Below are positions 28,216 to 44,036 of a stretch of DNA of 64,000 bases, piece by piece. Made by a program: the position numbers and the translations under genes. The notes beneath the pieces are model-generated. The model was not told the origin of the DNA. It saw nothing but the letters and a program-made list of their open reading frames with translations, and did not search any database. How positions within the stretch are numbered: position 1 is the first letter of the stretch; each line of letters starts with the position of its first letter. Source of the DNA: an uncultured Enterobacteriaceae bacterium (lineage in GTDB: Bacteria; Myxococcota_A; UBA796; SXON01); assembly GCA_964457335.1 (NCBI GenBank), contig CAYWGD010000026.1, forward strand, positions 2,534 to 66,533, read 5' to 3'.

Positions 28216-30207
28216 GTGCCCTTCTCAGGGGTCAGCGCCGCGCTCCTGAAATATTTCGACTCGGAGCGCCCCGACACGCAGAAGCTCGTCGACACGCTCG
28301 CCGAGGGGTTCACCGGCTCTTCCGTCTCGCTCTTCTGGAGCCTGCATGGGGTGTTGTACCTGTCCGCGACGACGGACCCCGAGCTGCGTGCCAAGGCGGA
28401 GCGCGAAGACGTTTGTAACGAGCCGGGGGACGGGCTCACCGGGCAGGTGATGGCCACCGGCCGCGCGCTGCGGTTCGTCAACGCGAACGATCCGCTCGAG
28501 GTCGGCCCCGTCGCGCCCGACCGCGCGGGGCCGCTCCACCCCGAGGCGACCGGCCTGGACGGCCGGGTGCAACGGTCCCTGCTCGTGCCCGTCCGGCACA
28601 CCGAGCAGACCCGAGGGGTGCTCCGGCTCTCGCGGAACGCGCCCCACGAACCCTACTCCGCGTCCGACGAGCGCGTGCTCCAGCGCTTCGCCGACCTCCT
28701 GGGCCGCGTGATGGGCGACTTCTGGGAGCTGCAGGTGCTGAGGACGATCTGGCGCGCGCCCAGCTTCTCCGCGATGGTGTCCCACGAGGGAGAGGGCCCG
28801 AAGGGCGCCTCGCGCATCGTCGCCGTCAGCCCCGGGGCCCACGCGCTGATCGGGTACACCGAGGAGCAGCTCGGCGGCTCGCCGCCCTCGAGGCTCTACG
28901 CCGATCGGGACGCCGCCCGGCAGACGATCGGGTTGGCCCGGGCCAGCGGCGCCCCCGTCCGGCTCGTCGCGCGGCGGGAGGACCAGCGGCTCCTCCCGGT
29001 GACGATCCACTACCAGGACGTGGTGAACAGCCTGGTCGTGCCGCCCCAGCGACACACCATCGGCATCGCGTACGACGACACGGCGCGGACGCAGGCCGAG
29101 GCGGTGAACGAGCGCTTCGAGGAGGTCCTGGATGAACTCGACATGGTGTACTTCCGATGGGAGGTCAGCGGCCGTGCGCTCCATCCTTCACGGACGGAGC
29201 GGCGGCTGACGGGATTCCGCCCGGAGGAGCTGCGGGACGTCACCCGCCTGTGGCCGAGCCGCCAGGCTCGCGAAGCGCTCGTCCGGGCGCTGAGGGCGGC
29301 TCCCGATCGGAAGGTCCGCGACCAGGTCGTCCAGCTCAGGCACAAGGACGGCCATCCGCTCATCGTGTCCGCGGACGTGCGCCTCGTCGTGGACCCCGAG
29401 ACCGGCCGGGAGGTGCTCGAGGGGGTGTACCGCGACATCTCGGACCGCATCGCCCTCCAGCGCTCGCTCGACGCGCCGACGGACCGCCAGCTCCCTGACG
29501 CCGAGCTGCACGAGCGCCTGCTCCATCACCAGGAGGCGCAGAACGCCTTCGTCGCGTCCGTGGGGCACCAGCTGAAGGCGCCCCTCGCGAACGTGCTGGA
29601 CGGCCTCCGCAACGCCCAGGAGGGGCGGATCCCCGGCGAGTTCCTGATGGAGCGGCTCGGCCGGCTCGCGGCGCAGGTCCAGCGCTGCCTCGACATCGTG
29701 CTCGGGCTGTCCATGCTCCACCAGGTGCTGCGCGGGAGCCCGGCCCGGCGCCGATCCGTGACCCTGGCCCGGCTCTGCCGCCAGCTGGCGGACGACTTCA
29801 ACCCCACCCTCCGGAACGCGCGCCTCCGCCTCGACGTGGAGGTCGGGCCCCAGGTCGTCGTGCAGGCCGACCCGGACCTGCTGCGTCAGATCCTGTACAA
29901 CCTCCTCGACAACGCCGTGAAGTACTCCGATACGGGCACGACGATCCGCGTTCGCGCCAACGTGACTCCCCCCTGGGTCGACGTCATGAACCGGGGGCTC
30001 CCCATCGAGGGGAGCGAGCGGGAGCGCGTGTTCGAGCGGGGCTACCGGCTGGTGCAGGCCCGGGCGGTGCAGGCGCAGGGAACGGGGCTGGGCCTGTGGC
30101 TCGCGCGCGAGTTGTGCCGCGCGATGGGAGCGAGCGTCTCGTTCCTGGAGGAGTGGGAGGGCAGCGATCGGTGGAACGTGTTCCGAGTGACGTTCGAGCG
30201 GAGGTGA
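28216..30207 (+). CDS. Cytoplasmic GAF-PAS-PAS sensor histidine kinase
   Basis: GAF-like GDGLTGQV...SLLVPV...GVLRLS; PAS-like LIGYTEEQL and LTGFRPEEL; H-box VGHQLKAPL, N-box NLLDNAVKYS, G2 GTGLGL. Confidence 0.88.
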   Translation: MPFSGVSAALLKYFDSERPDTQKLVDTLAEGFTGSSVSLFWSLHGVLYLSATTDPELRAKAEREDVCNEPGDGLTGQVMATGRALRFVNANDPLEVGPVAPDRAGPLHPEATGLDGRVQRSLLVPVRHTEQTRGVLRLSRNAPHEPYSASDERVLQRFADLLGRVMGDFWELQVLRTIWRAPSFSAMVSHEGEGPKGASRIVAVSPGAHALIGYTEEQLGGSPPSRLYADRDAARQTIGLARASGAPVRLVARREDQRLLPVTIHYQDVVNSLVVPPQRHTIGIAYDDTARTQAEAVNERFEEVLDELDMVYFRWEVSGRALHPSRTERRLTGFRPEELRDVTRLWPSRQAREALVRALRAAPDRKVRDQVVQLRHKDGHPLIVSADVRLVVDPETGREVLEGVYRDISDRIALQRSLDAPTDRQLPDAELHERLLHHQEAQNAFVASVGHQLKAPLANVLDGLRNAQEGRIPGEFLMERLGRLAAQVQRCLDIVLGLSMLHQVLRGSPARRRSVTLARLCRQLADDFNPTLRNARLRLDVEVGPQVVVQADPDLLRQILYNLLDNAVKYSDTGTTIRVRANVTPPWVDVMNRGLPIEGSERERVFERGYRLVQARAVQAQGTGLGLWLARELCRAMGASVSFLEEWEGSDRWNVFRVTFERR

Positions 30208-30209
30208 GC

Positions 30210-30644
30210 ATGCGCGTCCTGCTGGTCGACGACGAGGCGTACGACATGGAGTGGATCGCGGACCTGGTCAGCAGATCCGGGCACCAACTGGTCGTGGCGA
30301 CGAACCGGGCCGACGGCGAACGTCGTCTCCGCGAGCACGCCCGCGGGGAGCGCTTCGGTCTCGCGATCATCGACGTGATGATGGCGACCCACGGGCTGTC
30401 CGAGCTGCGCGAGTGGAACGCGCAGGTCGCGGCCAACTCGATGCGGTCGGGGCTCGACCTCATCGCGTTCGCCCGTCGCGAGCTGGGCATCCCCGCGAGG
30501 GACCTGCCGATCTTCTGCTACACCGCCCGCGACGACGTCGAGGACGAGGCCGTCGCCCTCGGCTCCGAGTACTTCGCCCGGGACGGCTCCCCGGCGTTCC
30601 GGGACCGGCTGAAGCAGTTCCTGGGCCTCGAGAAGACCCCGTAG
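30210..30644 (+). CDS. Single-domain response regulator (atypical receiver)
   Basis: MRVLLVDDE, IIDVMM, FCYTA. The beta5 Lys appears to be replaced by Arg (EYFAR). Confidence 0.8.
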   Translation: MRVLLVDDEAYDMEWIADLVSRSGHQLVVATNRADGERRLREHARGERFGLAIIDVMMATHGLSELREWNAQVAANSMRSGLDLIAFARRELGIPARDLPIFCYTARDDVEDEAVALGSEYFARDGSPAFRDRLKQFLGLEKTP

Positions 30645-30652
30645 CGCCCCGA

Positions 30653-31306
30653 TCAGAGATCGCCGCACCCCGCCGCCCCGTCCACCCGCCACATCGCGAA
30701 GGTGCTCCGCGACGGGTCGGGGCGCGTGTCGGGGGTGAAGTCGAAGAGGGGATGGCTCGCGCCGAGCGTGGCCTGACGCTGCTCGAGGAGGACCACGCGC
30801 CCCTCGACGCGGTCGGGGCCGACGAGCGCGCCCTCCAGCCGGCTGTGCCCGCGCTGGGCGACCCACACCTCGGCCGCGCCGAAGCCGGGCACCACCACGC
30901 GCACGGTCGCGCCGGGCTTCCCGTCGCGGTCGGCGTCGACGACGTGGGGCTCGTCGGCGCGGGCGGGGAGATCGCCGCGGGCGGGGTCGTAGCCGACCAC
31001 CTGCACGCCGGTGTCGGCCCGCCACGTCCAGGTGTCGCCCGCGCGCGTGAGCTCCACCGGGTAGGTGCGGTCGGGGAGCGCCGCGCGCCAGCCGTCCGGG
31101 AGCGTCGTGCGCGCGAGCTTCGTGCCGCCCTCGAGCACGGTGTTGCACACGGTCTGGCGCTGAACCCAGCCGTCGCCGTCCCGGGTGACGCGCACGAGCA
31201 GGGTGCTCCGCGACGCGCTCCGCGTCTCGCCGAACAGGGGCGCCCGGGTGATCGCCGCCACGACCACCTCCAGGGCCCAGGTGCCGCCGAGGTCCACCAC
31301 GTCCAT
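30653..31306 (-). CDS. Hypothetical protein, translationally coupled to the acyltransferase
   Basis: ATG at 31306 overlaps the upstream TGA (TGATG). Plausible protein MDVVDLGGTWALE... Confidence 0.6.
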   Translation of the reverse strand: MDVVDLGGTWALEVVVAAITRAPLFGETRSASRSTLLVRVTRDGDGWVQRQTVCNTVLEGGTKLARTTLPDGWRAALPDRTYPVELTRAGDTWTWRADTGVQVVGYDPARGDLPARADEPHVVDADRDGKPGATVRVVVPGFGAAEVWVAQRGHSRLEGALVGPDRVEGRVVLLEQRQATLGASHPLFDFTPDTRPDPSRSTFAMWRVDGAAGCGDL

Positions 31307-32037
31307 CACGCGCTCCGGCTGAAGAGGGAGAGGAGCCGCGCGCCGAGGCCGCGGTCGGTCCGCGACGAGGCGGAGGCGACGATGGGGAAGAAGCCTGCCG
31401 AAGCGGGGGGGGGCGTTGCGGGGGGGCTCGGCCCCCCCGCCCCAGGATCCAGGAACCGATCCACCACCTCCAGGCCCGCGACGAGCGCTTCTTCGAGCCG
31501 ATCGGCGGGGACCGGCGAGCCGAGGTGCACGAGCGCGGCGGGTCGGTCGCCCTCCCGGAAGGTGTAGGTGAGCGCCACCGGGACGATGGGGGCGCCGCTC
31601 GCGCGGGCGACGAGCCCGACGCCGGGCCGGATGCCGAGCGGCCGGAGCCACGGCGGCCGCTGTCGGCCCTGCGGGAAGATCCAGACCGCGCGGCCCGGCC
31701 GGTCGAGCACCGCCGCCGCGGCCCGGAGCCCCGCCCGCGCCGCGAGCCCGCCCCGGTCGAGCGCGAGGGCGCCGACGGAGCGCAGCCAGGGGAGGCGCCG
31801 GAGCGTGGAGGCCTCGACGAGCACGTGGCCCTCGGCGCCCAGGGCCTCGTCCACGAGCAGCATGACGAGGCCGTCCCACCACGCGACGTGCGTGGCCGCG
31901 AAGACGACGGGGCCCTCGGCCAGCCGCGCCCGCGTCTCGGCGAGCCCCGCGACGTACACGCCGTCGAGGCCCCGGCGCACGCGCCACCGGGTGTACAGGC
32001 GCCAGGCGGCGACCGCGAGCGGGCTCCGGGCGCTCAC
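31306..32037 (-). CDS. PlsC-like acyltransferase, probable carotenoid glucoside acyltransferase (CruD-like)
   Basis: THVAWWD (HxxxxD), WIFPQG, PIVPVAL. GTGA overlap with the GT2 gene; adjacent to crt genes. Confidence 0.8.
   Translation of the reverse strand: MSARSPLAVAAWRLYTRWRVRRGLDGVYVAGLAETRARLAEGPVVFAATHVAWWDGLVMLLVDEALGAEGHVLVEASTLRRLPWLRSVGALALDRGGLAARAGLRAAAAVLDRPGRAVWIFPQGRQRPPWLRPLGIRPGVGLVARASGAPIVPVALTYTFREGDRPAALVHLGSPVPADRLEEALVAGLEVVDRFLDPGAGGPSPPATPPPASAGFFPIVASASSRTDRGLGARLLSLFSRSA
31403..31444. repeat. REP-like hairpin GGGGCGTTGCGGGGGGG-CTCGG-CCCCCCCGCCCC (copy 1)
   Basis: Near-identical to 49085-49121; 9-bp stem at 31418-31440. Confidence 0.65.
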
Positions 32038-33137
32038 GCCGTACGCTCGTGCCGCGGGCGGTACGCGCGCCCGCGCCACCGGATGACCCCGCGGCGGCTC
32101 CACGCCCACGAGTTCACGGCGAGGGCCAGCATCCACGCGATGCCGACGGCGTGGAGCGGCACGGTCCAGGGCGCGTGCCCGAAGCGCGCCGCGAGGAGCG
32201 CGCGCTGGGCGAGGTTCGCGGCCACGCCGACCGCGGCGGGCGCGGGCGCGAAGGGGAGCGCGAGCCAGGGGAGGAGGAAACACGTCACGTGGAGGGCGAG
32301 CGTGGCGACGAGCGCGGCGGGGGTGCCGCCGATGCCCTCGTAGAGGTTCTTGGAGAAGCCCTCCCAGGCCTCGCGCCCGCTCCGGTACATCCGGCAGCGG
32401 GCGATCGCGGCGCCGTCCACGAAGTCGACGCGCAGGCCCGCCCGCTTGGCCGCCCGGCACAACGCCATGTCGTCGACGACCTCGGTGGCCACGGCCCCAT
32501 GCCCACCGAAGCGCGCGTAGGCGTCGCGACGGACGGCGAGGAGCTGGCCGTTGGCGGCGAGGAAGCGGGGGTCGCGGGTGGCGCGCACGAGCGGGAGCGG
32601 GAGCCAGGAGAGGTAGGTGAGGTGCAGGAGCGGCAGCACGAGGCGCTCCGCGGCGCTCCCGGCCTCCTGGCGGGGGAGGAGCGAGACGACGTCGGCGTCC
32701 ACGGCGGCGGCGGCGATGCCGGCGAGGGCGCCGGGGGCCAGCACGGTGTCGGCGTCGACGAAGACGAGCAGGTCGCCGGTGGCGGCCGCGGCGAGCTGCT
32801 GGCAGGCGTGGGGCTTCCCGACCGCGCCGCGCGGCAGGGGGCGGCCGGTGATCACGCGCAGGCGCGGGTCGCCGGCTGCGAGGGCCGCGAGGATCGCCGG
32901 GGTGCCGTCGGTGGAGCGGTCGTCGCAGACGATCACCTCGTCGAAGGGCTCGGCGAGCAGGGCCTGCACGCAGCGCGCGATGCCGCGCTCCTCGTCGCGG
33001 GCGGGCACGAGCGCGCTGGCCCGCGTCCGGGGGGCGTGCGCAGGCTTTGCGGCGGCCGGCCGCCACGAAGCGAGGTTGAACAGGGTGAGGGCCAACGGGA
33101 GGGTTGGCGGAAGTGCGAGCAGGAACCAGGAGATCAC
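32034..33137 (-). CDS. Glycosyltransferase family 2, probable carotenoid glucosyltransferase (CruC/CrtQ-like)
   Basis: LVPARDEE, DDRSTDGT, GKPHAC, LVFVDAD, ANGQLL, DDMAL, CRMY. Divergent from crtE. Confidence 0.85.
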   Translation of the reverse strand: MISWFLLALPPTLPLALTLFNLASWRPAAAKPAHAPRTRASALVPARDEERGIARCVQALLAEPFDEVIVCDDRSTDGTPAILAALAAGDPRLRVITGRPLPRGAVGKPHACQQLAAAATGDLLVFVDADTVLAPGALAGIAAAAVDADVVSLLPRQEAGSAAERLVLPLLHLTYLSWLPLPLVRATRDPRFLAANGQLLAVRRDAYARFGGHGAVATEVVDDMALCRAAKRAGLRVDFVDGAAIARCRMYRSGREAWEGFSKNLYEGIGGTPAALVATLALHVTCFLLPWLALPFAPAPAAVGVAANLAQRALLAARFGHAPWTVPLHAVGIAWMLALAVNSWAWSRRGVIRWRGRAYRPRHERTA

Positions 33138-33166
33138 GGACCCTCCGCCGTCGAGACCCCTTGGGG

Positions 33167-33195
33167 TTGCAGGGTCTCCGAACACCGTGTATATG
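33167..33195 (+). promoter_or_regulatory. Sigma70-type promoter for the crtE operon
   Basis: TTGCAG-N17-TATATG; SD GGAGG at 33231-33235. Confidence 0.6.
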
Positions 33196-33227
33196 CTTTG
33201 CACTGGCTTTGAACAAGTTGTGCAAGG
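33184..33227 (+). promoter_or_regulatory. CarH-type operator: four tandem 11-bp direct repeats
   Basis: ACCGTGTATAT / GCTTTGCACTG / GCTTTGAACAA / GTTGTGCAAGG fit the nnnnTnnACAn CarH repeat; a carH-like gene lies in the operon. Confidence 0.75.
33188..33216 (-). promoter_or_regulatory. Sigma70-type promoter for the GT2/acyltransferase operon
   Basis: Minus strand TTGTTC-N17-TATACA; the -10 box overlaps that of the opposite promoter. Confidence 0.5.
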
Positions 33228-33239
33228 CCCGGAGGACGA

Positions 33240-34304
33240 ATGCTCCAGCCCTCGAACCGCCGCTCGGCGGCCCGCTCCCCGGCCGCCCCTCCCCTGGACC
33301 CGCAGGAGGTCGACCCCCTGGGCCTCTGGGCGGACGACGCGCTCTCCGAGGTCGAGGACGTGATGAGCCGGCTCGCGGTCGGCACGCGGCTCGAGCGCTC
33401 CGGCCACATGGTGCAGGAGCACCTCGCGACGGGCGGCAAGCGGCTCCGGGCACGGCTGGCCCTCGCGGCGGTCGAGGCGATGGGCGGCACCCGCGCCCGC
33501 GCCGTGGGCTGGGCCGCGGCCTGCGAGCTCGTGCACAACGCCACGCTCATCCACGACGACTTGCAGGACGGCGATCGCGTCCGGCGCGGCCGCCCGACCA
33601 CCTGGGTGCGGCACGGCGCGCCGCAGGCGATCAACGCGGGGGACCTGCTCCTCATGCTGCCGTTCCTGGCAGTAGACGCGGTCCCCGCGGACGGCGATGT
33701 GCGCTGGGGCCTCGCGCGGGCCATCGCCCGCCGGGCCGAGGCGACGGTGCGCGGCCAGTCGCTGGAGCTCGACCTGCTCGGGGGCCGGCGGACCGACTGG
33801 GAGACGTGGCTGCGCGCGACGGAGGGCAAGACCGGCGCGCTGCTCGCGCTCCCCGTGGAGGGGGCCGCGCTGCTCGCGGGGCTCTCGCCCGACGCGGCGG
33901 CGCACATCGCGCAGGACTTCGTGCGCATCGGCGTCCTGTTCCAGGTCGCCGACGACGTGCTCGACCTCTACGGCGACAAGGGCCGCGGCGAGCGCGGCAA
34001 CGACCTCCGCGAGGGCAAGGTGAGCGCGCTCGTGGTCGAGCACCTGCGGCTCCACCCCGCCGACGCGCCCTGGCTCCTCGCGCTGCTGGAGGCGCCCCGG
34101 GAGCTCACGCCGGACGGGGAGGTCGCGACGGCGATCGAGGCGTTCCAGGTCGCGGGCGCCTTGGCGGCGGTCGTCGACCGCTTCGAGGTCCTGGCGCGGG
34201 CGGTGCACGACGCGCCGCTCTTGCGGGCCGTGCCGGACCTGCACGCCGTGGCCCTCGAGCTCGTCGAGCAGATCCGATCCACGCTGCCGGCGGTGCGCTC
34301 GTGA
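33240..34304 (+). CDS. crtE: Geranylgeranyl diphosphate synthase (polyprenyl synthetase)
   Basis: FARM LIHDDLQD, RRGRPT, SARM FQVADDVLD, GKRLR. Confidence 0.88.
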   Translation: MLQPSNRRSAARSPAAPPLDPQEVDPLGLWADDALSEVEDVMSRLAVGTRLERSGHMVQEHLATGGKRLRARLALAAVEAMGGTRARAVGWAAACELVHNATLIHDDLQDGDRVRRGRPTTWVRHGAPQAINAGDLLLMLPFLAVDAVPADGDVRWGLARAIARRAEATVRGQSLELDLLGGRRTDWETWLRATEGKTGALLALPVEGAALLAGLSPDAAAHIAQDFVRIGVLFQVADDVLDLYGDKGRGERGNDLREGKVSALVVEHLRLHPADAPWLLALLEAPRELTPDGEVATAIEAFQVAGALAAVVDRFEVLARAVHDAPLLRAVPDLHAVALELVEQIRSTLPAVRS

Positions 34305-35821
34305 GCGCGCGGCCGTACGTCGTGGTCGGCGCCGGCTTCGGCGGCCTCGCGGCCGCGGTGCGCCTTCGCGCGATGGGCCACCCCGTCGTCGTGCTGGAGG
34401 CCACCGACCAGCCCGGCGGGCGCGCGAGCGTGTTCCGGCAGGACGGCTTCACCTTCGACGCCGGCCCGACCGTCATCACGGCGCCCTACCTGGTCGACGA
34501 GCTCTTCGCGCTCGTGGGCCGGAACGCCGCCGACTACTACGAGCTGATGCCGGTCGACCCGTTCTACCGGGTCGTGTTCCCCGACGGGTCGAGGTTCGAC
34601 TACGTGGGCGAGGAGGAGCGGATCCTCGCCCAGATCGCGGCGATGTCCCCGCGGGACGTGGACGGCTACCGCAAGCTCGCCGCCCAGGCGAAGCGCATCT
34701 TCGACGTGGGCTACACCCGGCTCGTCGATCAGCCCTTCGACCGGCTCTCGGACATGCTCCGCGTCGCCCCCGACATGATCAAGCTGCGGAGCTTCCGGTC
34801 CGTGTACGGGCTCGTGTCGTCGTTCATCGAGGACGAGCGGCTCCGGCAGGTGTTCACCTTCCAGCCGCTGCTCGTGGGCGGGAACCCCTACGCGACGTCC
34901 TCGATCTACCTGCTCATCCACTGGCTCGAGCGGAAGTGGGGGGTGTGGTTCCCCAAGGGCGGCACGGGCGCGCTCGTGACCGCGCTCGTGCGGCTCCTGG
35001 GCGAGCTCGACGTGCCCGTGCGGCTGAACAGCCCGGTCGAGCGCATCGAGGTGGAGAACGGGAAGGCCGTCGCGGTGCGGCTCGCGGGCGGCGAGCGCGT
35101 GCCCTGCGCGGGCGTCGTGAGCAACGCCGACCCGTCGTTCGTCTACAAGCACCTCGTCGACGGGGCGCACCGCCGCACCCACACAGACGCCGCGGTGGCG
35201 CGCAAGAAGCCGTCGATGAGCCTGTGGGTGGCCTACTTCGGCGTCGACCGCACGTACGAGGACGTGGCGCACCACACCATCCTCCTCGGCCCCCGCTACA
35301 AGGGGCTGCTCGACGACATCTTCGAGAACAAGGTCCTCGCCGAGGACTTCTCGCTCTACCTGCACCGCCCCACGGCGAGCGACCCGAGCCTCGCGCCCGT
35401 GGGCAAGGAGGCGTTCTACGTGCTCTCGCCGGTGCCGAACCAGCGGAGCGGGCTCGACTGGGACAACGCCCTCCCCGCGTACACGGACCGGATCATGTCG
35501 TTCCTCGACCGGGGCGCGCTCCCCGGCATCAAGGGCTCGATCGCGTCGATGAAGACGATCGACCCGCGCTACTTCGCGAACCAGATGCGGTCGGTGGACG
35601 GCGCGGCGTTCGGCATCGAGCCGACCCTGCTCCAGTCGGCCTGGTTCCGCTACCACAACCGCTCCGAGGACGTCGACGGGCTCTACTTCGTCGGCGCGAG
35701 CACCCACCCCGGCGCGGGCGTGCCGGGCGTGCTCAACTCCGCGCGGGTGCTCGAGAAGGTGGTGCCCCGGCCGGCGTCGCCGATCTCCGTCCCACCGGCC
35801 CTGCGGATCGTCGCGTCCTGA
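34301..35821 (+). CDS. crtI: Phytoene desaturase
   Basis: VVGAGFGGLAAA, FTFDAGPTVITAP, LLVGGNP..TSSIY.LIH.LER.WGVWFPKGG, GLYFVGASTHPGAGVPG. Confidence 0.93.
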   Translation: MSARPYVVVGAGFGGLAAAVRLRAMGHPVVVLEATDQPGGRASVFRQDGFTFDAGPTVITAPYLVDELFALVGRNAADYYELMPVDPFYRVVFPDGSRFDYVGEEERILAQIAAMSPRDVDGYRKLAAQAKRIFDVGYTRLVDQPFDRLSDMLRVAPDMIKLRSFRSVYGLVSSFIEDERLRQVFTFQPLLVGGNPYATSSIYLLIHWLERKWGVWFPKGGTGALVTALVRLLGELDVPVRLNSPVERIEVENGKAVAVRLAGGERVPCAGVVSNADPSFVYKHLVDGAHRRTHTDAAVARKKPSMSLWVAYFGVDRTYEDVAHHTILLGPRYKGLLDDIFENKVLAEDFSLYLHRPTASDPSLAPVGKEAFYVLSPVPNQRSGLDWDNALPAYTDRIMSFLDRGALPGIKGSIASMKTIDPRYFANQMRSVDGAAFGIEPTLLQSAWFRYHNRSEDVDGLYFVGASTHPGAGVPGVLNSARVLEKVVPRPASPISVPPALRIVAS

Positions 35822-35834
35822 ACCGGGGGAAACG

Positions 35835-36758
35835 ATGGGCTACCGGGTCAAGACGGTCTCGGCGATGACGGGGATCCCGCGGGGGACCCTGCTCTCGTGG
35901 GAGCGTCGGTACGACATCCTCGAGCCCGACCGGTCGGCGGCGGGGTACCGCGACTACAGCGACGCCGACGTGGCCGTGTTCAAGCGGCTCAAGGCGCTCG
36001 TGGACGCCGGCTACAGCATCAGCGAGGCCGTCGACCTCGCGCGGCCGCCGAAGGCGGCGGAGGGAGGGCGCACGGAGCCTCCGCGCGTCGAGGCGAGCGG
36101 GGACGTGGTCGACGCGATCCTCCGCGCGCTCCTCGCGTTCGACCGCGGCGCCGCCGACCGGCTCGTGCCGCGGTTCGGGCAGGTGTCGTTCCTCGCGGTG
36201 ATCGACGAGGTGCTCGTGCCGCTGCTCCACCGGCTCGGCGAGGCCTGGGAGCGCGGCGAGGTCAGCGTCGCGCAGGAGCACTTCGTCTCCGGGTTCTGTC
36301 GGGAGCACCTGCTCGCGATGTATCACGGGCTCGGCGGCGGCCCCGAGGGCGGCGTGGCCGTGGCGTGCGCGACGCCTCCCGGCGAGCGGCACGAGCTCGG
36401 GCTCCTGGTGCTCGCGCTCAAGCTCGCGCTCGGGGGGCACCGGGTCGTGTGGCTCGGCGCCGACCTCCCGGTGCCCGACCTCTGCGCCTACCTCGCGGTG
36501 CACAACCCGCGCTTCGTGTGCCTCTCGTTCACGCGGCTCGTGTCGCGGGACACGCTGCTCGGCTTCGCGCGGGCGCTCCGCGCGGGCGCGCCCACGACCG
36601 GGATCATCTTCGGCGGCCCGGGCCTCGCGGGTATGGAGGGCGCGCTGCTCGACGGCGTGCGCGTCCTGACCAGGTCCGCGGAGCTCGAGGCCCTGCTCGC
36701 GGACGCGAGCCCGGGCGGGTGGGCTGCGCGTGCCCGGGTCGCCCGGGCGTCCGGGTGA
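35835..36758 (+). CDS. carH: MerR-type, B12-binding photoreceptor repressor (CarH/LitR family)
   Basis: MerR HTH with SWERRY..L.P.RS..GYR.Y; Wx9EH motif (WERGEVSVAQEH); ExHxxG (GERHELG); WLGADLP. Confidence 0.88.
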   Translation: MGYRVKTVSAMTGIPRGTLLSWERRYDILEPDRSAAGYRDYSDADVAVFKRLKALVDAGYSISEAVDLARPPKAAEGGRTEPPRVEASGDVVDAILRALLAFDRGAADRLVPRFGQVSFLAVIDEVLVPLLHRLGEAWERGEVSVAQEHFVSGFCREHLLAMYHGLGGGPEGGVAVACATPPGERHELGLLVLALKLALGGHRVVWLGADLPVPDLCAYLAVHNPRFVCLSFTRLVSRDTLLGFARALRAGAPTTGIIFGGPGLAGMEGALLDGVRVLTRSAELEALLADASPGGWAARARVARASG

Positions 36759-36761
36759 CAC

Positions 36762-37712
36762 ATGACTGAACCACGAGATGTGTCGGTGGCCGTGGTGGAG
36801 GAGAGCCGCGCCGTGCTCGCGCGGCACGCGCGCAGCTTCCGCTGGGCGTCCATGTTCCTGCCGGCCGCCGCGCGGGACGACGCCGCGGTGGTCTACAACT
36901 TCTGCCGACTCGCCGACGACCTCGTGGACGAGGCGCCCGACGCCGCGACGGGCGCCCGCGACCTCGCCCGCCTGGACGCCGAGCTCGGCGGCGAGGCCCC
37001 CCCGCGCCCGCTCGTGGCGGCGTTCCGCGCGGTCGTGGAGCGCCGGGGCATCGAGCTCGCCGCCGCGCAGGACCTGCTCGTGGGCATCGCCGGGGACCAG
37101 GGCCGCGTGCGCGTGGCCGACGACCCCGAGCTGCTCCGGTACTGCTACCGCGTGGCCGGCACGGTGGGGCTCCTGATGTGTGGGGTCCTCGGCGTGACGC
37201 GCCGGGAGGCCTGGCCGCACGCCGTCGACCTCGGCATCGGCATGCAGCTCACCAACATCTGCCGCGACGTGCTCGAGGACACCCGGCGCGACCGCGTGTA
37301 CCTGCCCGCGGCCCGCCTCCGCGCGGTGGGGGTCGATCCCGAGGAGCTCGTCGCCGGCACCGCCGACCGCGCCCGCGTGGCCGCGGTCGTGCGCGACCTG
37401 CTCGCCCTCGCCGAGCGCTACTACGCGAGCGCCGACGACGGGATGCGTGCCATCCCGCTGCGGAGCCGCCTCGCGATCCTCGTGGCGAGCCGCGTCTACC
37501 GCGCCATCGGGCGCCGCCTGCTCCGGCGGGGCTGTGACGCGCTGGCCGGCCGGACGATCGTGCCCGCCTGGGAGAAGCTCGGGTGGCTCGTGGCGGGGCT
37601 GCTCGCCGCGCTGCGCCCGCGCGTGGCGGGGCTCCTCGCCGCGCCGCCGCACGACGCGGCGCTGCACACGGGGCTGGAAGGGCTCGTCCCGGGACCGACG
37701 TGCTCGCGCTGA
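36762..37712 (+). CDS. crtB: Phytoene synthase
   Basis: HARSFRWAS, YNFCRLADDLVD, YCYRVAGTVG, LGIGMQLTNICRDVLED, RVYLP. Confidence 0.93.
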   Translation: MTEPRDVSVAVVEESRAVLARHARSFRWASMFLPAAARDDAAVVYNFCRLADDLVDEAPDAATGARDLARLDAELGGEAPPRPLVAAFRAVVERRGIELAAAQDLLVGIAGDQGRVRVADDPELLRYCYRVAGTVGLLMCGVLGVTRREAWPHAVDLGIGMQLTNICRDVLEDTRRDRVYLPAARLRAVGVDPEELVAGTADRARVAAVVRDLLALAERYYASADDGMRAIPLRSRLAILVASRVYRAIGRRLLRRGCDALAGRTIVPAWEKLGWLVAGLLAALRPRVAGLLAAPPHDAALHTGLEGLVPGPTCSR

Positions 37713-38779
37713 CGCCCCCGGACGCGGCACCCTGCCGCGAGGTGCTCGTGTCCCCAGGCGGGTTCTCGTGGTGGTACGCGGACATCGTCGACGACGCGGG
37801 CGACGGCGTCGTGCTCATCGGGGCGTGGGGCCTGCCGTTCCTCCCCGGGTACGCGGCGGCGGCCCGGCGGGGCGAGGCGCAGCGCCCTGAGGAGCGCCCC
37901 TCGCTGAACCTCGCGGTGTACCGGGCGGGCCGCCCCTGCTTCTACCTGCTCCAGGAGGGCGCGGGAGTGTGGGAGTCGCCCACGGTGTGGCGCTTCGGGG
38001 ACTCGGTGGTCGAGAGCGTGGTCGTGGACGGCGAGCGCCGGCTGCGCGCCGCGCTCGACTGCCCGGTGGCCGGCTCGTTGGACCGCCTCCGCGGGACCGT
38101 CGAGGTGCGGGGCGCCGCGCGACGGGCCTCCCCGATGGAGGTGGCGGAGGGTGAGCACCGCTGGACGCCGCTCACCGGGCCCGCGAGCGGGCAGGCCACG
38201 CTCCACGCCGGCGAGTGGCGCTTCGCCGTGCGCGGCCGCGGCTACCACGACCGCAACGAGTCGCGGGCGCCGCTCGACGCGCTCGGCATCGGGGAGTGGC
38301 TGTGGGGGCGCGCGCCGCTCGGCGACCGGGAGGTGGTGTGGTACCTGCTCTGGCCCGCTGACGGCGGGCCCGTGGTCGCCTGGGGGCTCCTGCTCCACGC
38401 CGACGGGGGGACCACGCCGATCGAGGGGCTCACCGTCGAGCTCGGGGCGCGTCGCCGGGGCGCGTACGGCCTCGGGTGGTGGGACCGCGTGCGCCTCCGA
38501 CACGCCGGTGAGACATGGCTCCATGTGTCACACGGTTCGGCGGTCGAGGACGGGCCGTTCTACCTGCGGTTCCTGCCCGTCGTGGAGGGCGTCGGGAGCC
38601 GCGGGCGGGGCGTCGCGGAGCTCGTGCGGCCCGACCGCGTGGACCTCGACTGGATGCGGCCGTTCGTGCGGATGCGCGTGCGCCCGGGGGAGGGGCGGCC
38701 GTCGAGGTGGCTGCCCCTCTTCGAGGGGCCGGCCTCGGACCGGCTCGGGCGCCTCTGGAGCGGGTGGCTCGGTGGCTGA
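37700..38779 (+). CDS. crtC: Carotenoid 1,2-hydratase
   Basis: GGFSWWYADIVDD, GRGYHDRN. GTG start overlaps the crtB end. Confidence 0.72.
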   Translation: MLALTPPDAAPCREVLVSPGGFSWWYADIVDDAGDGVVLIGAWGLPFLPGYAAAARRGEAQRPEERPSLNLAVYRAGRPCFYLLQEGAGVWESPTVWRFGDSVVESVVVDGERRLRAALDCPVAGSLDRLRGTVEVRGAARRASPMEVAEGEHRWTPLTGPASGQATLHAGEWRFAVRGRGYHDRNESRAPLDALGIGEWLWGRAPLGDREVVWYLLWPADGGPVVAWGLLLHADGGTTPIEGLTVELGARRRGAYGLGWWDRVRLRHAGETWLHVSHGSAVEDGPFYLRFLPVVEGVGSRGRGVAELVRPDRVDLDWMRPFVRMRVRPGEGRPSRWLPLFEGPASDRLGRLWSGWLGG

Positions 38780-40235
38780 CGCCGTCGTCGTGGGGAGCGG
38801 GCTCGGCGGGCTCGCGGCGGCGATCGAGCTCGCCGCGCTGGGCTGGGACGTGCGGGTGCTGGAGGCGGGGCCGATGCCCGGCGGGAAGGCGGGGGTCGTG
38901 GAGCTCGACGGGGTGGAGGTCGACACCGGGCCGAGCGTGCTGACGCTGCCCGAGGTGCTCGACGGGGTGCTGCGGGCCGGCGGGTCGAGCCTCGCCGACC
39001 AGCTCGAGCTCGTGTATGCGTCGCCGGCCTTCCGATACATCTGGCCGGGTGCTGACACATTCGACGTGTATCAGGCGCCCGAGGAGACGCTCGCCAGCGC
39101 CGCGCGGGCGTTCGGAAGCGACGCCGAGCGCGAGCTCGCCGCGTTCCTGGCCTACGCCCGGCGCATCTGGGACGCGGCGGCGCCCAACTTCGTGCTCGGG
39201 CCGGCGCCGACGGTCGCGGGGCTGACCCGGCTCGGGGTGCGCGCGTTCGGGCTCGTGGCCGACATCGACGGGCTGCGGTCGATGGACCGCGCGATCCGCG
39301 CCCGCGTGCGGCACCCGCGGCTCCGCGACGTGCTCGCCCGCTACGCGACGTACAACGGCTCGGACCTACGGGCCGCGCCGGCCACCCTCAACTGCATCGC
39401 GCACGTCGAGCTCGGGCTCGGGGGCTACGGCGTACGGGGCGGCATCTACGCGATCGTACGGGCGCTCGTGCGCGTGGCCGAGCGGCTCGGCGTCACGATC
39501 ACCTGCGGCCGCCCCGTGACGCGCGTGCGCGTGCAGGACGGCCGCGTCGCGGGTGTCGACACCCCTGAGGGGCCCGTCGACGCCGCGGTGGTGGTCGTGA
39601 ACGCGGACGTGGGCGCGCTCGCGGAGGGCCTCGTGGAGGCGCGGACGGGCGTGGGGGTGACCGAGCCGCGGTCGACGTCGGGCTGGACGGCGATCGTGCG
39701 GGCGCGCCGCCGCGTCGGGGCCGATGCACGGGTGGCGCACACGGTGCTCTTCCCGGAGCGGCCGTACGTCGAGGAGTTCGTGGACCTCTTCGACCGGGGG
39801 CGGCCGCCGGCGGACCCGACCGTGTACCTGTGCGCGCAGGAGGCGTGCCACGGGCGGCGCGGGTGGCAGGAGGAGGAGCCCGTCTTCGTCATGGTGAACG
39901 CGCCCGCCGAGCCGCGGGGCGGCGCGTCGACCGACTGGGCGGCCGTCGAGGCCGGCGTCCTCGGGCGTCTCCGGGGCGCGGGGCTCCTCGACGCGGGCGA
40001 CGCGGTCGTGTGGCGGCGCACCCCGGCCGAGCTGGCGGCGCGCTTCCCGGGGAGCCGCGGGGCGCTCTACGGGGCGGCCAGCAACGGTCTGGGCGCGGCG
40101 TTCCGACGCCCGCCGAACGCGGTCGCACGGGTCCCGGGGTTGTACCTGGCGTCCGGGAGCGCACACCCGGGCGGCGGCATCCCCTTGTGCCTGCAGTCCG
40201 GGCGGCAGGCCGCGGCGGAGGTGGGGCCCCCCTGA
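38772..40235 (+). CDS. crtD: CrtI-family desaturase, probably 1-hydroxycarotenoid 3,4-desaturase
   Basis: VVVGSGLGGLAAA, DTGPSVLT, RYATYNGS...APATL..IAHVE, GLYLASGSAHPGGG. Located directly after crtC. Confidence 0.65.
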   Translation: MADAVVVGSGLGGLAAAIELAALGWDVRVLEAGPMPGGKAGVVELDGVEVDTGPSVLTLPEVLDGVLRAGGSSLADQLELVYASPAFRYIWPGADTFDVYQAPEETLASAARAFGSDAERELAAFLAYARRIWDAAAPNFVLGPAPTVAGLTRLGVRAFGLVADIDGLRSMDRAIRARVRHPRLRDVLARYATYNGSDLRAAPATLNCIAHVELGLGGYGVRGGIYAIVRALVRVAERLGVTITCGRPVTRVRVQDGRVAGVDTPEGPVDAAVVVVNADVGALAEGLVEARTGVGVTEPRSTSGWTAIVRARRRVGADARVAHTVLFPERPYVEEFVDLFDRGRPPADPTVYLCAQEACHGRRGWQEEEPVFVMVNAPAEPRGGASTDWAAVEAGVLGRLRGAGLLDAGDAVVWRRTPAELAARFPGSRGALYGAASNGLGAAFRRPPNAVARVPGLYLASGSAHPGGGIPLCLQSGRQAAAEVGPP

Positions 40236-40247
40236 AAGGGGGGTGTA
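40227..40247. repeat. Hairpin motif CCCCCCTGAAAGGGGGGTGTA (copy 2), containing the crtD stop codon
   Basis: 20/21 identical to 9370-9390. Confidence 0.7.
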
Positions 40248-40282
40248 GCTGTGGTCCGCGCCATTCTGAGATAGGGGAGCGC

Positions 40283-42745
40283 ATGCGCATCCGTTCGCTG
40301 CTCCCGCTCGTGCTGGCTTCGGCCTGCAACGAGCCGAAGGAGCGGACGCCGGCGGACCCCGCGGACACCGACTCCGGCGCGGCCGACTCCGAGACGGGCG
40401 ACACGGACACCGGCGGCCCCGACACCGGCGACACCGGCCCCACCGAGCCGATCGCGCACGCATGGGCCGACGAGCTCGAGGACGCCGACCTGGTCGTCGG
40501 CTCCTGCGGCAGCGACGACGAAGGCACCCACGTGGTGGCGCCCGGGCCCGACCTCGACGGGGATGGGCTCCCCGAGCTCGCCATCGGCGCGCCGGGGCAC
40601 GACCTCTCCCGCGTCAGCGGCGGGGCCGTGTACTTCTTCCGCGGGAGCGACGTGGTGGACGGGCTCGGCGCGTGGGACGCCTACGCGGTGGTCCACACGG
40701 ACGAGCGCGAGATGGGCTTCGGCTCCCGCGTGTCGTGGGTCGGCGACCGCGACGGCGACGGCGTGGACGACCTCGTGGTCGGCTACGAAAGGGGGTTCTC
40801 GACCGTGCCGGGGGCGGACCTGCTCGCCGGCGGCGACGTGACGCCGTCCGCGAGCTTCGTCCCCTCGTCCGAGCTCACCTTCGTCCGCTGGGCCGACGTG
40901 GACCGCGACGGCGTGGACGACTGGCTGTTCGGGCACTCCGGGCGCTACGGCGAGGGCGCCGTCTCGGTGGTGCGGGACGCGGACTTCACCCTCGCGCTGG
41001 TCACGGCGAGCGAGTCGGCGTACGGCTCGACCGCCTCCGACGACGCGGGGCGGACGCTCGTGGCGCTCCACGAGGACTGGGACGGGGACGGCATCCCCGA
41101 ATTCGCGACGATCCTCTACGACACGCTGCACGTCATCGGCTCGGCGCGGCTCCTGGCGGGCGAGGATCAGCTCGCCGACGCGGCCCTGACGGGGGCGCCG
41201 TACCTCTCCGGTCACCAGGTGCTCGCGCCCGGGGACATCGACGGCGACGGGCTCGACGAGCTCCTCGTGTTCCAGGCGGGCAACAAGCTCTGCGTGCTGA
41301 ACGGCGCCGACTACACCGGCGAGTCGAAGATCTGCATCCGCGACGAGGGCCTGGGCCCGGACGAGGCGGTGCTCGGTGACGACCTCGACGGCGACGGCGT
41401 CCCCGAGGTGTGGTTCACCCGCGACGGTTGGCTCGTGGCCCAGGACGTGGGCGCGCTCGCGCAGGGCATCGAGCTCGAGCTGGCGCGGATGGCGCTCCCG
41501 GGCACCGCGGAGCGGCTGGCGGCCGCCGACGGGGTCGTCTGGGCGAGCCCCGAGGTCGCGTCCGAGGACCCGGAGGCCGAGATCGCCTGGGCCCACACCG
41601 CGTCGTTCACGCCGCAGCGCGCGGTGACGGTGTACGGCGGGAAGTGGGGCGGCATCCCGGAGATCCCCGCGTGGCGGGACGTGACGGGCGACGGCGTGGT
41701 CGATCTCGTCCTCGACGACGCCGCGGGGGGCGGCCTCGCCGCGTTCGACGGCGCCACGCTCGCCGAGGGGGGCGCGCGCACCTGGTGCGACGCCACCTGG
41801 ACCCGCCCGTGGACCGGCGTGACGACCAGATGGCTCGACGACGTGAACGGCGACGGCGCGGACGACGCGCTGCTCACCCGCTACCAGGACGGCGGCACGT
41901 GGCTCCACGAGGTGTGGTCCGGGCCCGTCGCGATCGGCGCGGTGGAGGGCGACGCCCCGCTCGCGTCGTGGACGTCGGAGGCGGACCTGGAGCCGCTCGC
42001 CGGCTGCGACCTCGACGGGGACGGGCACGAGGACCTCGTCGCGGACGGCGTCGACGGCGCGGAGCTCCTCGCCGGGGGCGCCGTCGGGGCGGACGGCTTC
42101 CGCCGTCTCGGCGCGATCCGCACCGACTCCACGCTCGACTGCCTGCCGGACGCGGACGGGGACGGGGGGGACGAGCTCTACGTCCGGCCGCGGAGCGACC
42201 GCGCCCACCTGTTCCGCTCGTCGCAGCTCGACCCTGCCACCACCCTGGAGGAGGAGGCGGCCGGGCTCACGATCGAGGGCGAGGACCTCTCCGTCGGGGA
42301 GCCGCTGCGCGCGGCGGACGGCAGCGGGCGGGTCGGCTGGTGGCTCCAGGTCGACGGCGACTACCAGCTCTGCCTGTTCGAGCTCGCCGGGCTCGCGGGC
42401 ACCGTGGCCAGCGCCGACGTGCCCAGGAGCTGCCTGGAGGACGTCTACGCCTCCGCGGTGGTCGACACCTGGCTCGACGAAGCGACCGGCGACACGACGC
42501 TCGACATCGTGCTCCACGCCGGTGGATCCGTCCGCGTCGTCGACGGCGCGACGCTGGGGCGCTCGGACCTGCTCGTCTACGTCGACGCGGAGGAGCGCCG
42601 GATCACCGACGTGGGCCCCGGGTCCGACGTCTTCGGGGTCGGCGCCCGCGCCATCTGGACACTCGGGGACGACCCCGATGCCGCCTACCACCTGGACTGG
42701 ACCCGCCTCGACGTGCTCTTTGCCCACCCTCCGGAGGAACCTTGA
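40283..42745 (+). CDS. FG-GAP-like repeat lipoprotein, paralog 1 of 3
   Basis: MRIRSLLPLVLASAC; about 12 DxDGDG loops. Confidence 0.8.
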   Translation: MRIRSLLPLVLASACNEPKERTPADPADTDSGAADSETGDTDTGGPDTGDTGPTEPIAHAWADELEDADLVVGSCGSDDEGTHVVAPGPDLDGDGLPELAIGAPGHDLSRVSGGAVYFFRGSDVVDGLGAWDAYAVVHTDEREMGFGSRVSWVGDRDGDGVDDLVVGYERGFSTVPGADLLAGGDVTPSASFVPSSELTFVRWADVDRDGVDDWLFGHSGRYGEGAVSVVRDADFTLALVTASESAYGSTASDDAGRTLVALHEDWDGDGIPEFATILYDTLHVIGSARLLAGEDQLADAALTGAPYLSGHQVLAPGDIDGDGLDELLVFQAGNKLCVLNGADYTGESKICIRDEGLGPDEAVLGDDLDGDGVPEVWFTRDGWLVAQDVGALAQGIELELARMALPGTAERLAAADGVVWASPEVASEDPEAEIAWAHTASFTPQRAVTVYGGKWGGIPEIPAWRDVTGDGVVDLVLDDAAGGGLAAFDGATLAEGGARTWCDATWTRPWTGVTTRWLDDVNGDGADDALLTRYQDGGTWLHEVWSGPVAIGAVEGDAPLASWTSEADLEPLAGCDLDGDGHEDLVADGVDGAELLAGGAVGADGFRRLGAIRTDSTLDCLPDADGDGGDELYVRPRSDRAHLFRSSQLDPATTLEEEAAGLTIEGEDLSVGEPLRAADGSGRVGWWLQVDGDYQLCLFELAGLAGTVASADVPRSCLEDVYASAVVDTWLDEATGDTTLDIVLHAGGSVRVVDGATLGRSDLLVYVDAEERRITDVGPGSDVFGVGARAIWTLGDDPDAAYHLDWTRLDVLFAHPPEEP

Positions 42746-44031
42746 TCGCTCTTTTGCTCTCCACGTCCGCCTTCGCCGGCCCGCTGTTCACCGACCTGGG
42801 CTTCGTGCTCACCGCGCCGGAGTCCGGCACCTTCAGCAGCGGCGTGAACGCCCCGAGCGTCGCCTGGGACGGCACCCAGTACGTGATGTTCTTCGAGTCG
42901 CCCTCCGCGGAGGTGCCGACCGACTGCGCGAACAGCTACTCGATCGGCCGCGCGACCTCGCCGGACGGCCTCACCTGGACGATGGACGCGGACCCGGTGC
43001 TCACCCCGAACCGCACCGACGCGCTCTCGGTCTACTCCTGCTCCGTGGCGCAGCCCGCCGTCGTCTACGCGGACGGCACGTGGCACCTGCTCTTCGGGAT
43101 GGGCGACGAGAAGCAGGACGCCAGCGCCAGCGTCAACACCCCGGCCGGCATCGGCTACGCGACCAGCACCGACGGCTTCACCTTCACCGTGGTGCAGGCG
43201 CCCACCTCGCTCGGGGACGACGAGGACGGCACGCCGAGCGGCGACTGGCACGCCCCCGACGGCGGGAGCCAGCGGCTCTCCATCGGGATGCCGAGCGCGG
43301 TGATGATCGACGACGTGCTTCACGTCCTGTACATGGAGAGCACGGCGATGTACGCCGGGAAGTACGACACCGTGGCGGGCACCTGGAGCCTCTGGGATCC
43401 CTCGGTCTCGACCCCCTGGCTCGGCACATCCTGGGCGGCCTACGGCGTCTTCTCGCCGTCGCTCACCTGCACCGAGGACGCGATCGGCCTCGTCCTCGGC
43501 GGCTACTCGGACGCCAGCTACGGCCTGCGCGGCGTCGGGACCTCCGACTCGACCGACCTCGTCACCTGGTCCACGGGCGACGCCCTCGACTCCACCTCGG
43601 CGGCCCCCTTCGACTCGCTCAACCACGTCGAGCTCGTGACCGCCGGGGCCGACATGCTCGTGTACTACGGCATGACCGACGCCTCGACGGGCAAGAAGGC
43701 CATCGGCCTCGCCGCGACGGCGGCCTCGTGGGGCACCCCCGACGGCCGCGACTGCGCCTGGGAGAGCGACGCCGACACGGACACGGACACCGACACCGAC
43801 ACCGACACCGATACGGACACCGACACGGACACCGACACGGACAGCGACACCGACGCGGACACCGACACGGATACCGACACGGACACGGATACGGACACCG
43901 ACACCGACGCCGACACCGGCACGCCGGCGAAGGACGAGGGCGGCTGCGGCTGCGCCACCGGCGCCGGCCCGGCGGGGCTGGGGCTCTGGGCGCTGGGCGC
44001 GGCCGCGCTGATCCGCCGTCGGCGGCGCTGA
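42742..44031 (+). CDS. Secreted five-bladed beta-propeller (GH43/32/130-like fold) protein with Asp-Thr linker and MYXO-CTERM tail
   Basis: TTG start overlaps the upstream stop. NAPSV...YVMFFE, IGRATSPDGLTW, AQPAVV...WHLLF, IGYATSTDGFTF; tail GGCGCATG...ALIRRRRR. Confidence 0.7.
   Translation: MIALLLSTSAFAGPLFTDLGFVLTAPESGTFSSGVNAPSVAWDGTQYVMFFESPSAEVPTDCANSYSIGRATSPDGLTWTMDADPVLTPNRTDALSVYSCSVAQPAVVYADGTWHLLFGMGDEKQDASASVNTPAGIGYATSTDGFTFTVVQAPTSLGDDEDGTPSGDWHAPDGGSQRLSIGMPSAVMIDDVLHVLYMESTAMYAGKYDTVAGTWSLWDPSVSTPWLGTSWAAYGVFSPSLTCTEDAIGLVLGGYSDASYGLRGVGTSDSTDLVTWSTGDALDSTSAAPFDSLNHVELVTAGADMLVYYGMTDASTGKKAIGLAATAASWGTPDGRDCAWESDADTDTDTDTDTDTDTDTDTDTDTDSDTDADTDTDTDTDTDTDTDTDADTGTPAKDEGGCGCATGAGPAGLGLWALGAAALIRRRRR
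43768..43917 (+). repeat. Coding (GACACC/GACACG)n hexamer repeat encoding an Asp-Thr linker
   Basis: Directly visible run encoding DADTDTDT... Confidence 0.88.
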
Positions 44032-44036
44032 TACAC

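Follow-up and report, generated by a model that had tools for sequence, protein, structure and literature searches.

The 102-bp gap between two divergent carotenoid operons appears to contain the promoter of the crtE operon and, overlapping it, a CarH operator made of tandem 11-bp repeats that probably also silences the GT2 operon on the other side; on balance, we consider this overall reading probable. Its parts carry different weight: a CarH operator at PcrtE, considered alone and judged from motifs, conservation and gene content, is a claim we hold with good confidence, and the bidirectional part (that is, one operator covering two overlapping divergent promoters) is a tentative one that falls slightly short of an even chance. 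The window referred to throughout is the whole stretch of DNA analysed (64 kb, 74.6% GC), which was recovered in full from bioreactor metagenome runs and has uncultured Myxococcota MAGs as its closest relatives. Ten loci from uncultured Myxococcota (L001, L002 and L166-L173, the latter eight retrieved through CrtE homologues of 73-84% identity) were compared with it, giving eleven loci in all.

Gene calls based on GC3 frame analysis and on Pfam and NCBIfam scans resolved two divergent operons, in which successive genes are separated by no more than 13 bp or overlap. The gap between GT2 and crtE (33138-33239) has 60% GC in a genome of 75% GC. Carotenoid operons lie on both sides of it, and the divergent pair of GT2 (- strand) and crtE (+ strand) is kept in all ten relatives. 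The genes of the two arms are as follows.

30653-31309, - strand, orfY, an open reading frame of 218 aa without an assigned function, leftward operon
31306-32037, - strand, acyltransferase, leftward operon
32034-33137, - strand, GT2 glycosyltransferase, closest to the carotenoid 2'-O-glycosyltransferase CruG
33240-34304, + strand, crtE, first gene of the rightward operon
34301-35821, + strand, crtI, second gene
35835-36758, + strand, carH, third gene
36762-37712, + strand, crtB, fourth gene
37700-38779, + strand, crtC-like gene, fifth gene
38772-40235, + strand, crtD, sixth gene

GT2, the first gene of the leftward operon, has a GTG start codon and a GGAGG ribosome-binding site, and the acyltransferase and the 218-aa open reading frame (together 30653-32037, - strand) are translationally coupled to it through GTGA overlaps; the same trio is found in relatives. 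The rightward operon spans 33240-40235 (+ strand). On that strand, 3' of crtD, large FG-GAP repeat proteins occupy 39830-46514, with no obvious link to carotenoid synthesis.

The product of carH bears out what had been said of the local regulator from its Wx9EH and ExHxxG motifs, as both are intact: Wx9EH occupies residues 138-149, and the full B12-binding motif ([DE]xHxxG-x41-SxT-x26-GG) residues 184-261. Its Pfam domains are MerR_1, B12-binding_2 and B12-binding, so that a cognate CarH with a MerR-type DNA-binding domain, Wx9EH and a B12-binding motif is encoded close to the site. The closest solved relative is CarH of T. thermophilus (5C8D/5C8E; E = 6e-29), and the NCBIfam CarH model matches with E = 5e-38, yet below the cut-off of that model. 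Among the relatives L001, L002 and L166-L173, the gene follows crtI wherever the contig reaches that far, and it lies inside the rightward operon in the window, in L001, L002, L169 and L173 and in the more distant locus L181; identity to the CarH of the window is 65-69% in L001 and L002 and 50% in L181.

The candidate operator consists of four phased 11-bp units, whose coordinates are those originally predicted.

33184-33194, R2, predicted CarH operator unit
33195-33205, R3, predicted CarH operator unit
33206-33216, R4, predicted CarH operator unit
33217-33227, R5, predicted CarH operator unit

Read in order (ACCGTGTATAT, GCTTTGCACTG, GCTTTGAACAA and GTTGTGCAAGG), all four of these head-to-tail repeats carry T as their fifth letter and A as their eighth, and the 11-bp period is also seen in the spacing between GCTTTGCAC and GCTTTGAAC. 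The only full nnnnTnnACAn repeat on the + strand is R4; the flanking units R2, R3 and R5 each match the consensus at two or three of four positions. On the - strand, AGCATATACAC (33197-33187) and GCCTTGCACAA (33228-33218) are full repeats in two registers 2 bp apart, so that each register holds only one. The TGCA, TGTACA and TGTATA cores are palindromes, which lets the consensus be read on either strand and leaves orientation and register ambiguous. The strict form of the operator known from T. thermophilus and B. megaterium (three or four repeats, all nnnnTnnACAn) is thus absent, and the relaxed myxobacterial form (at least one full repeat together with in-phase degenerate ones) is present.

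Tandem 11-mers on both strands of the 64-kb window were scored for T5, A8, C9 and A10, as defined by the published unit nnnnTnnACAn. The intergenic site is the top match on both strands, at 13/16 on the - strand (from 33228) and 12/16 on the + strand (from 33184). The same scorer placed both positive controls first: the gap between carH and crtB of T. thermophilus (GAGATGTACAA AAGCTTGACAA AACCTATACAT) reached 12/12 and the four repeats upstream of carH in P. megaterium reached 16/16, against best scores of 10/12 and 13/16 in the window. The next-best CarH-like site of the window (59033-59077) sits in GC-rich coding sequence and was rejected as a chance match. One might suppose that the repeats are a by-product of an AT-richer intergenic region with no regulatory role beyond the promoter, given that 60% GC within a 75% GC genome raises the frequency of T- and A-containing motifs. 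Shuffles of the region itself, however, almost never reach the observed score: 13/16 was attained in none of 5,000 dinucleotide-preserving shuffles of the intergenic region (P <= 2e-4) and in 0.02% of shuffles of the intergenic core, the three-repeat version gave P = 0.0014, and three TnnACA hexamers are seen in 45 bp where 0.07 are expected. As the units downstream of the -10 are, in addition, conserved like the promoter hexamers across eleven loci whose flanks are unalignable, we consider chance a very improbable explanation.

The repeats overlap a predicted rightward promoter, for which the original prediction of TTGCAG-N17-TATATG towards crtE holds as to position.

33167-33172, + strand, predicted -35 of the crtE operon (TTGCAG), with TTGC invariant in 11/11 orthologues
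33190-33195 (TATATG, N17) or 33192-33197 (TATGCT, N19), + strand, predicted -10 of the crtE operon

The N19 reading of the -10 keeps TAnnnT in 11/11 loci, and the alternative reading is TATAnn at N17. The transcript of the crtE operon is predicted to start near 33202 (+ strand), which would give a leader of about 38 nt. Both this promoter and its leftward counterpart are weak matches (3/6 plus 4/6), and a strict sigma-70 and terminator scan of 32900-33500 gave no promoter or terminator call; the operator overlaps a conserved TTGC-N17-TATA promoter-like core, in which the promoter is predicted and fails the strict scan.

Conservation within the region is concentrated on this core. With GTATA as the anchor, the alignment of all eleven intergenic regions is gapless between the -35 and the fourth repeat, and the mean pairwise identities are as follows.

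33143-33166, left flank, 0.33
33167-33172, -35 hexamer, 0.80
33173-33189, spacer, 0.53
33190-33195, -10 hexamer, 0.82
33196-33214, 19 bp downstream of the -10 (GTTTGcaTcGgGTTTGCAC), 0.81
33215-33233, rest of the leader, 0.36

The block at 33196-33214 comprises two GTTTGCA units just downstream of the -10, and an early-transcribed block of two 11-bp units that is conserved as strongly as promoter hexamers is the signature of a protein-binding site. In the relatives, R1 lies in the promoter spacer (TGTACA, TGCACA or TGTATA), R2 coincides with the -10 (TGTATA), R3 reads GTTTGCATC and R4 reads GTTTGCAC. The window differs in having lost R1 (CCGAACAC), changed R4 to TTTGAACAA and gained R5 (GTTGTGCAAGG); the four-repeat set R2-R5 is therefore specific to the window, the relatives use R1-R4, and R2-R4 form a conserved three-repeat core. 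The site is the best CarH-consensus match of the whole 7-13-kb locus in L001, L002, L169 and L173 (four of the four scanned loci that reach the intergenic region), and relatives score 10-14/16 (14/16 in L002), slightly better on the - strand. A strict pattern for the operator core, run across GTDB species genomes, returned only the L001 and L002 contigs and two chance matches, and an alignment-based genome scan for distant CarH loci was swamped by Bacillaceae. The window also has an inverted repeat of its own, GCTTTGCAC (33195-33203) and GTGCAAGGC (33220-33228), with arms 89% complementary and 16 nt apart; it is built from R3 and the extra R5 and is absent from all relatives.

The 11-bp phasing, uniqueness within the window, conservation in eleven loci and presence of carH in the operon together support the originally predicted CarH-type operator over the crtE promoter. 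The GTTTGCA repeats might instead be the target of a different regulator, such as a response regulator with specificity for direct repeats, or might be promoter-proximal or leader elements unrelated to CarH. Direct repeats spaced 10-11 bp apart are also typical of OmpR/PhoB-family sites, the match of the repeats to TnnACA is only partial, and a histidine kinase and a receiver protein adjoin the left arm in the window. We rejected this pair as the alternative regulator, as it is not syntenic in the relatives, the receiver domain is matched only weakly (E = 8.6e-4; 19.9 bits, below the Pfam cut-off of 30.2) and no DNA-binding domain was found. Given further that the regulator gene accompanying the site is carH, that Rfam yielded no matching family and that the predicted leader is only about 38 nt long, an operator or leader element of this other kind seems improbable. 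As to the genes themselves, the GAF-PAS histidine kinase (28216-30207) and the open reading frame with the weak receiver match (30096-30644) run convergently towards the end of the GT2 operon, where relatives have a glycogen-debranching-like gene.

We infer CarH binding, and its dependence on B12 and light, from these observations, and envision the circuit as follows. A sigma-A-type promoter in the 102-bp gap (TTGCAG, a spacer of 17-19 bp, and TATATG or TATGCT) would drive crtE-crtI-carH-crtB-crtC-crtD, and the tandem 11-bp repeats that extend from the -10 to approximately +25 would serve as operator for the CarH that the operon itself encodes. AdoCbl-bound CarH would, in darkness, oligomerize on three or four successive repeats along one face of the helix, occupying R2-R4 together with R5 in the window or with R1 in the relatives. 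The bound protein would occlude the -10 and the early transcribed region, block binding or escape of RNA polymerase and thereby repress both the carotenoid genes and carH, which, being part of the operon, would make the circuit autoregulated. Photolysis of AdoCbl on illumination would make the oligomer fall apart and leave the promoter accessible. As the GT2-acyltransferase-orfY operon starts 50 bp to the left of the -10, and its candidate promoter shares the TGTATA/TATACA core, the same bound CarH would probably silence this operon as well, which would turn the region into a bidirectional light switch.

The leftward half of such a switch can be traced to the following elements.

33193-33188, - strand, candidate leftward -10 (TATACA), kept in 10/11 orthologues
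33216-33211, - strand, candidate leftward -35 (TTGTTC), with TTGnnC in only 3/11 orthologues
33153-33159 and 33172-33178, inverted repeat GAGACCC-N12-GGGTCTC, with 7-nt arms that are 100% complementary

The original prediction had taken these as a promoter towards GT2 (TTGTTC-N17-TATACA) with the inverted repeat in its leader, and the whole as a compact bidirectional switch. All the elements are where they had been placed, and those of the rightward promoter are conserved, but conservation does not extend to the leftward -35 or to the inverted repeat, and the conservation of TATACA only reflects that of TGTATA, its mirror image. The opposite-strand -10 boxes, TATATG and TATACA, overlap by 4 bp, and at relaxed thresholds the - strand of the intergenic region yields a single sigma-70-like candidate, TTGTTC-N17-TATACA. 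In a leftward leader, the inverted repeat would form a hairpin of -18.8 kcal/mol; it spans the -35 of crtE, with its left arm within the flank of 33% identity and its right arm within the spacer of the crtE promoter. An RNA element was rejected, since an Rfam search at a permissive threshold gave two sub-threshold chance matches only.

Alternatively, CarH might control the crtE operon only, with GT2 transcribed from a weak or differently regulated promoter outside CarH control. The retention of the leftward -35 in only 3 of the 11 orthologues fits this view, as do RNA contigs that match the right arm only: metatranscriptome contigs from three runs thinly cover 33316-36946 (crtE to crtB) and not the intergenic region or the GT2 arm, and three further RNA runs from the same studies gave no matches to the region. 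The same view gains from four relatives in which the intergenic region is about 85 bp longer between the GT2 start and the crtE -35, as no convincing second CarH-like site was found beside GT2 in them; control of the left arm may thus not be clade-wide, and the extra sequence may hold a separate GT2 promoter. The short gaps, however (95-102 bp, and 41 bp in L181), leave no space for a GT2 promoter clear of the core, and the only - strand candidate uses the shared TATACA. Moreover, the right arm supplies the substrates of GT2 and the acyltransferase, and it would make sense for the two arms to be co-induced. On balance, we regard a switch confined to the crtE operon as unlikely and co-repression of both arms as plausible. 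In the four longer regions (L166 1729-1830, L168 2817-2920, L169 2827-2920 and L172 2815-2920), the extra stretch carries GTGTAYACG-like elements of its own and, in L169, also a GC-rich inverted repeat.

The gap is shorter still in L181 (3703-3744), where a TTGCAA-N17-TATAAGGTTTG core fills the 41 bp between the divergent start codons of crtC and crtY. It separates crtC-GT2-acyltransferase from crtY-crtE-crtI-crtB-carH, and overlapping divergent promoters are unavoidable in a gap of this length. The ATG lies 9 nt after the -10 hexamer in this locus, which implies that the crtY mRNA is leaderless or nearly so. A search for near-identical strain variants of the window in other metagenomes found none that span the operator.

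Overlapping divergent promoters have been described elsewhere: in the account of Warman et al. 2021 given in PMC10268837, bidirectional promoters with a near-symmetric -10 have divergent starts 7-25 bp apart, most commonly in an 18-bp geometry with reciprocal -11A/-7T. The window resembles these in that the -10s of opposite strands overlap and the predicted starts, near 33202 on the + strand and near 33181 on the - strand and about 21 bp apart, fall within the 7-25 bp of that account; it differs in lacking the 18-bp, reciprocal -11A/-7T geometry reported there as commonest, as neither TATATG nor TATACA has T at -7.

Among CarH systems, the closest counterpart by description is S. cellulosum, in which a single footprinted CarH operator covers two overlapping divergent promoters, responsive to light and B12, at crtI|carH (Pcrt-Sc1) and again at crtE|crtD (Pcrt-Sc2) (Perez-Castano et al. 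2022, PMC9304148). More generally, some validated myxobacterial CarH operators have one or two full repeats and degenerate ones, overlap the -35 or -10 and serve two divergent promoters (PMC9304148). The divergent-promoter design is thus already known from S. cellulosum, and the window falls within the documented plasticity (PMC9304148). In both cases, a single set of tandem 11-bp repeats lies between divergent carotenoid operons and overlaps putative -35 and -10 elements in both directions, carH is part of one arm, and one of the two S. cellulosum sites likewise has one full repeat and degenerate ones. In contrast to S. cellulosum, the window has one predicted operator rather than two, carH is third in a crtE operon, the genes of the partner arm are for glycosyl and acyl tailoring, and the repeats extend downstream of the -10. 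Pcrt-Ho of H. ochraceum precedes a crt cluster with carH, and its -35 and -10 are overlapped by 11-bp repeats in tandem, of which two are full and two degenerate (PMC9304148); as described, it shares with the window the four tandem repeats at a crt cluster that contains carH, but concerns a single upstream region and not a divergent pair.

The T. thermophilus operator (PDB 5C8E; L174 1933-1965) also consists of 11-bp direct repeats, with TGTACA/TATACA cores identical to R1 and R2 of the clade, and also lies in a divergent intergenic region (there carH|crtB) with carH autoregulated. Its three perfect nAnnTnnACAn repeats are, however, centred on the -35 of PcarH only, whereas the degenerate repeats of the window are centred on the -10 and the early transcribed region. 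In the same T. thermophilus locus, ldrP is annotated next to carH, and crtB is controlled indirectly through LdrP. The CarH/CarA operator at Pcrt (PB) of M. xanthus resembles that of the window in placing 11-bp TnnACA repeats over the sigma-A promoter of a crtE-led operon that encodes carH. The layout nevertheless differs from that of M. xanthus, as the original prediction had stated: the M. xanthus operator has five repeats in about 55 bp around a TTGACA -35, its promoter is unidirectional, carA and carH stand in tandem in its operon, and M. xanthus has a parallel CarA/CarS pathway, whereas no carA was seen in the window.

If confirmed, these predictions would place carotenogenesis under B12 and light control in a further lineage, uncultured Myxococcota of very high GC content from bioreactors and freshwater, and would add a natural variant of the CarH operator in which degenerate repeats over the -10 and leader control two divergent operons. 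Such variants help to define the rules of CarH-DNA recognition and could inform compact light-controlled cassettes for bidirectional expression; the current picture of CarH action would be unchanged. Compared with the known systems, the modest distinctions of the window are a predicted operator centred on the -10 and leader, a partner arm devoted to tailoring, and an inversion of crtB relative to all relatives that puts the whole pathway under one control region. A more far-reaching version is doubtful but conceivable, namely that CarH of this clade recognizes a shifted unit, with a GTTTGCA/TGYA core and no fixed positions other than T5 and A8, that its operator has its centre over the -10 and early transcribed region instead of the -35, that a mirror-symmetric TGTATA/TATACA -10 fires both ways, and that one oligomer controls the operons for backbone synthesis and tailoring together, from a stretch as short as 41 bp in relatives such as L181.

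The inversion of crtB is seen by comparison with every relative that reaches that far (L001 7106-7969, L002 7001-7930 and L086 1544-2470). The window gene (36762-37712) directly follows carH on the same strand, which leaves the whole pathway in one operon behind the predicted operator; in the relatives, crtB points the other way (carH>, <crtB | crtC> crtD>). The resulting divergent gap between crtB and crtC in the relatives (approximately 44-65 bp; L001 7970-8013, L002 7927-7987, L086 2468-2530) contained no second operator or 11-bp CarH-like repeats, and carries a conserved CGCTAACGCG motif that is possibly a promoter element of another sigma factor. In L180, a crtE homologue (66% identical) stands alone, without a neighbouring carH, and has two elements upstream of it (1183-1215 and 1320-1353). 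They comprise three GATGTnTCAC units in 11-bp phase and the perfect palindrome GATACATGTATC, and may represent a different operator type on the same TGTATC/GATACA core.
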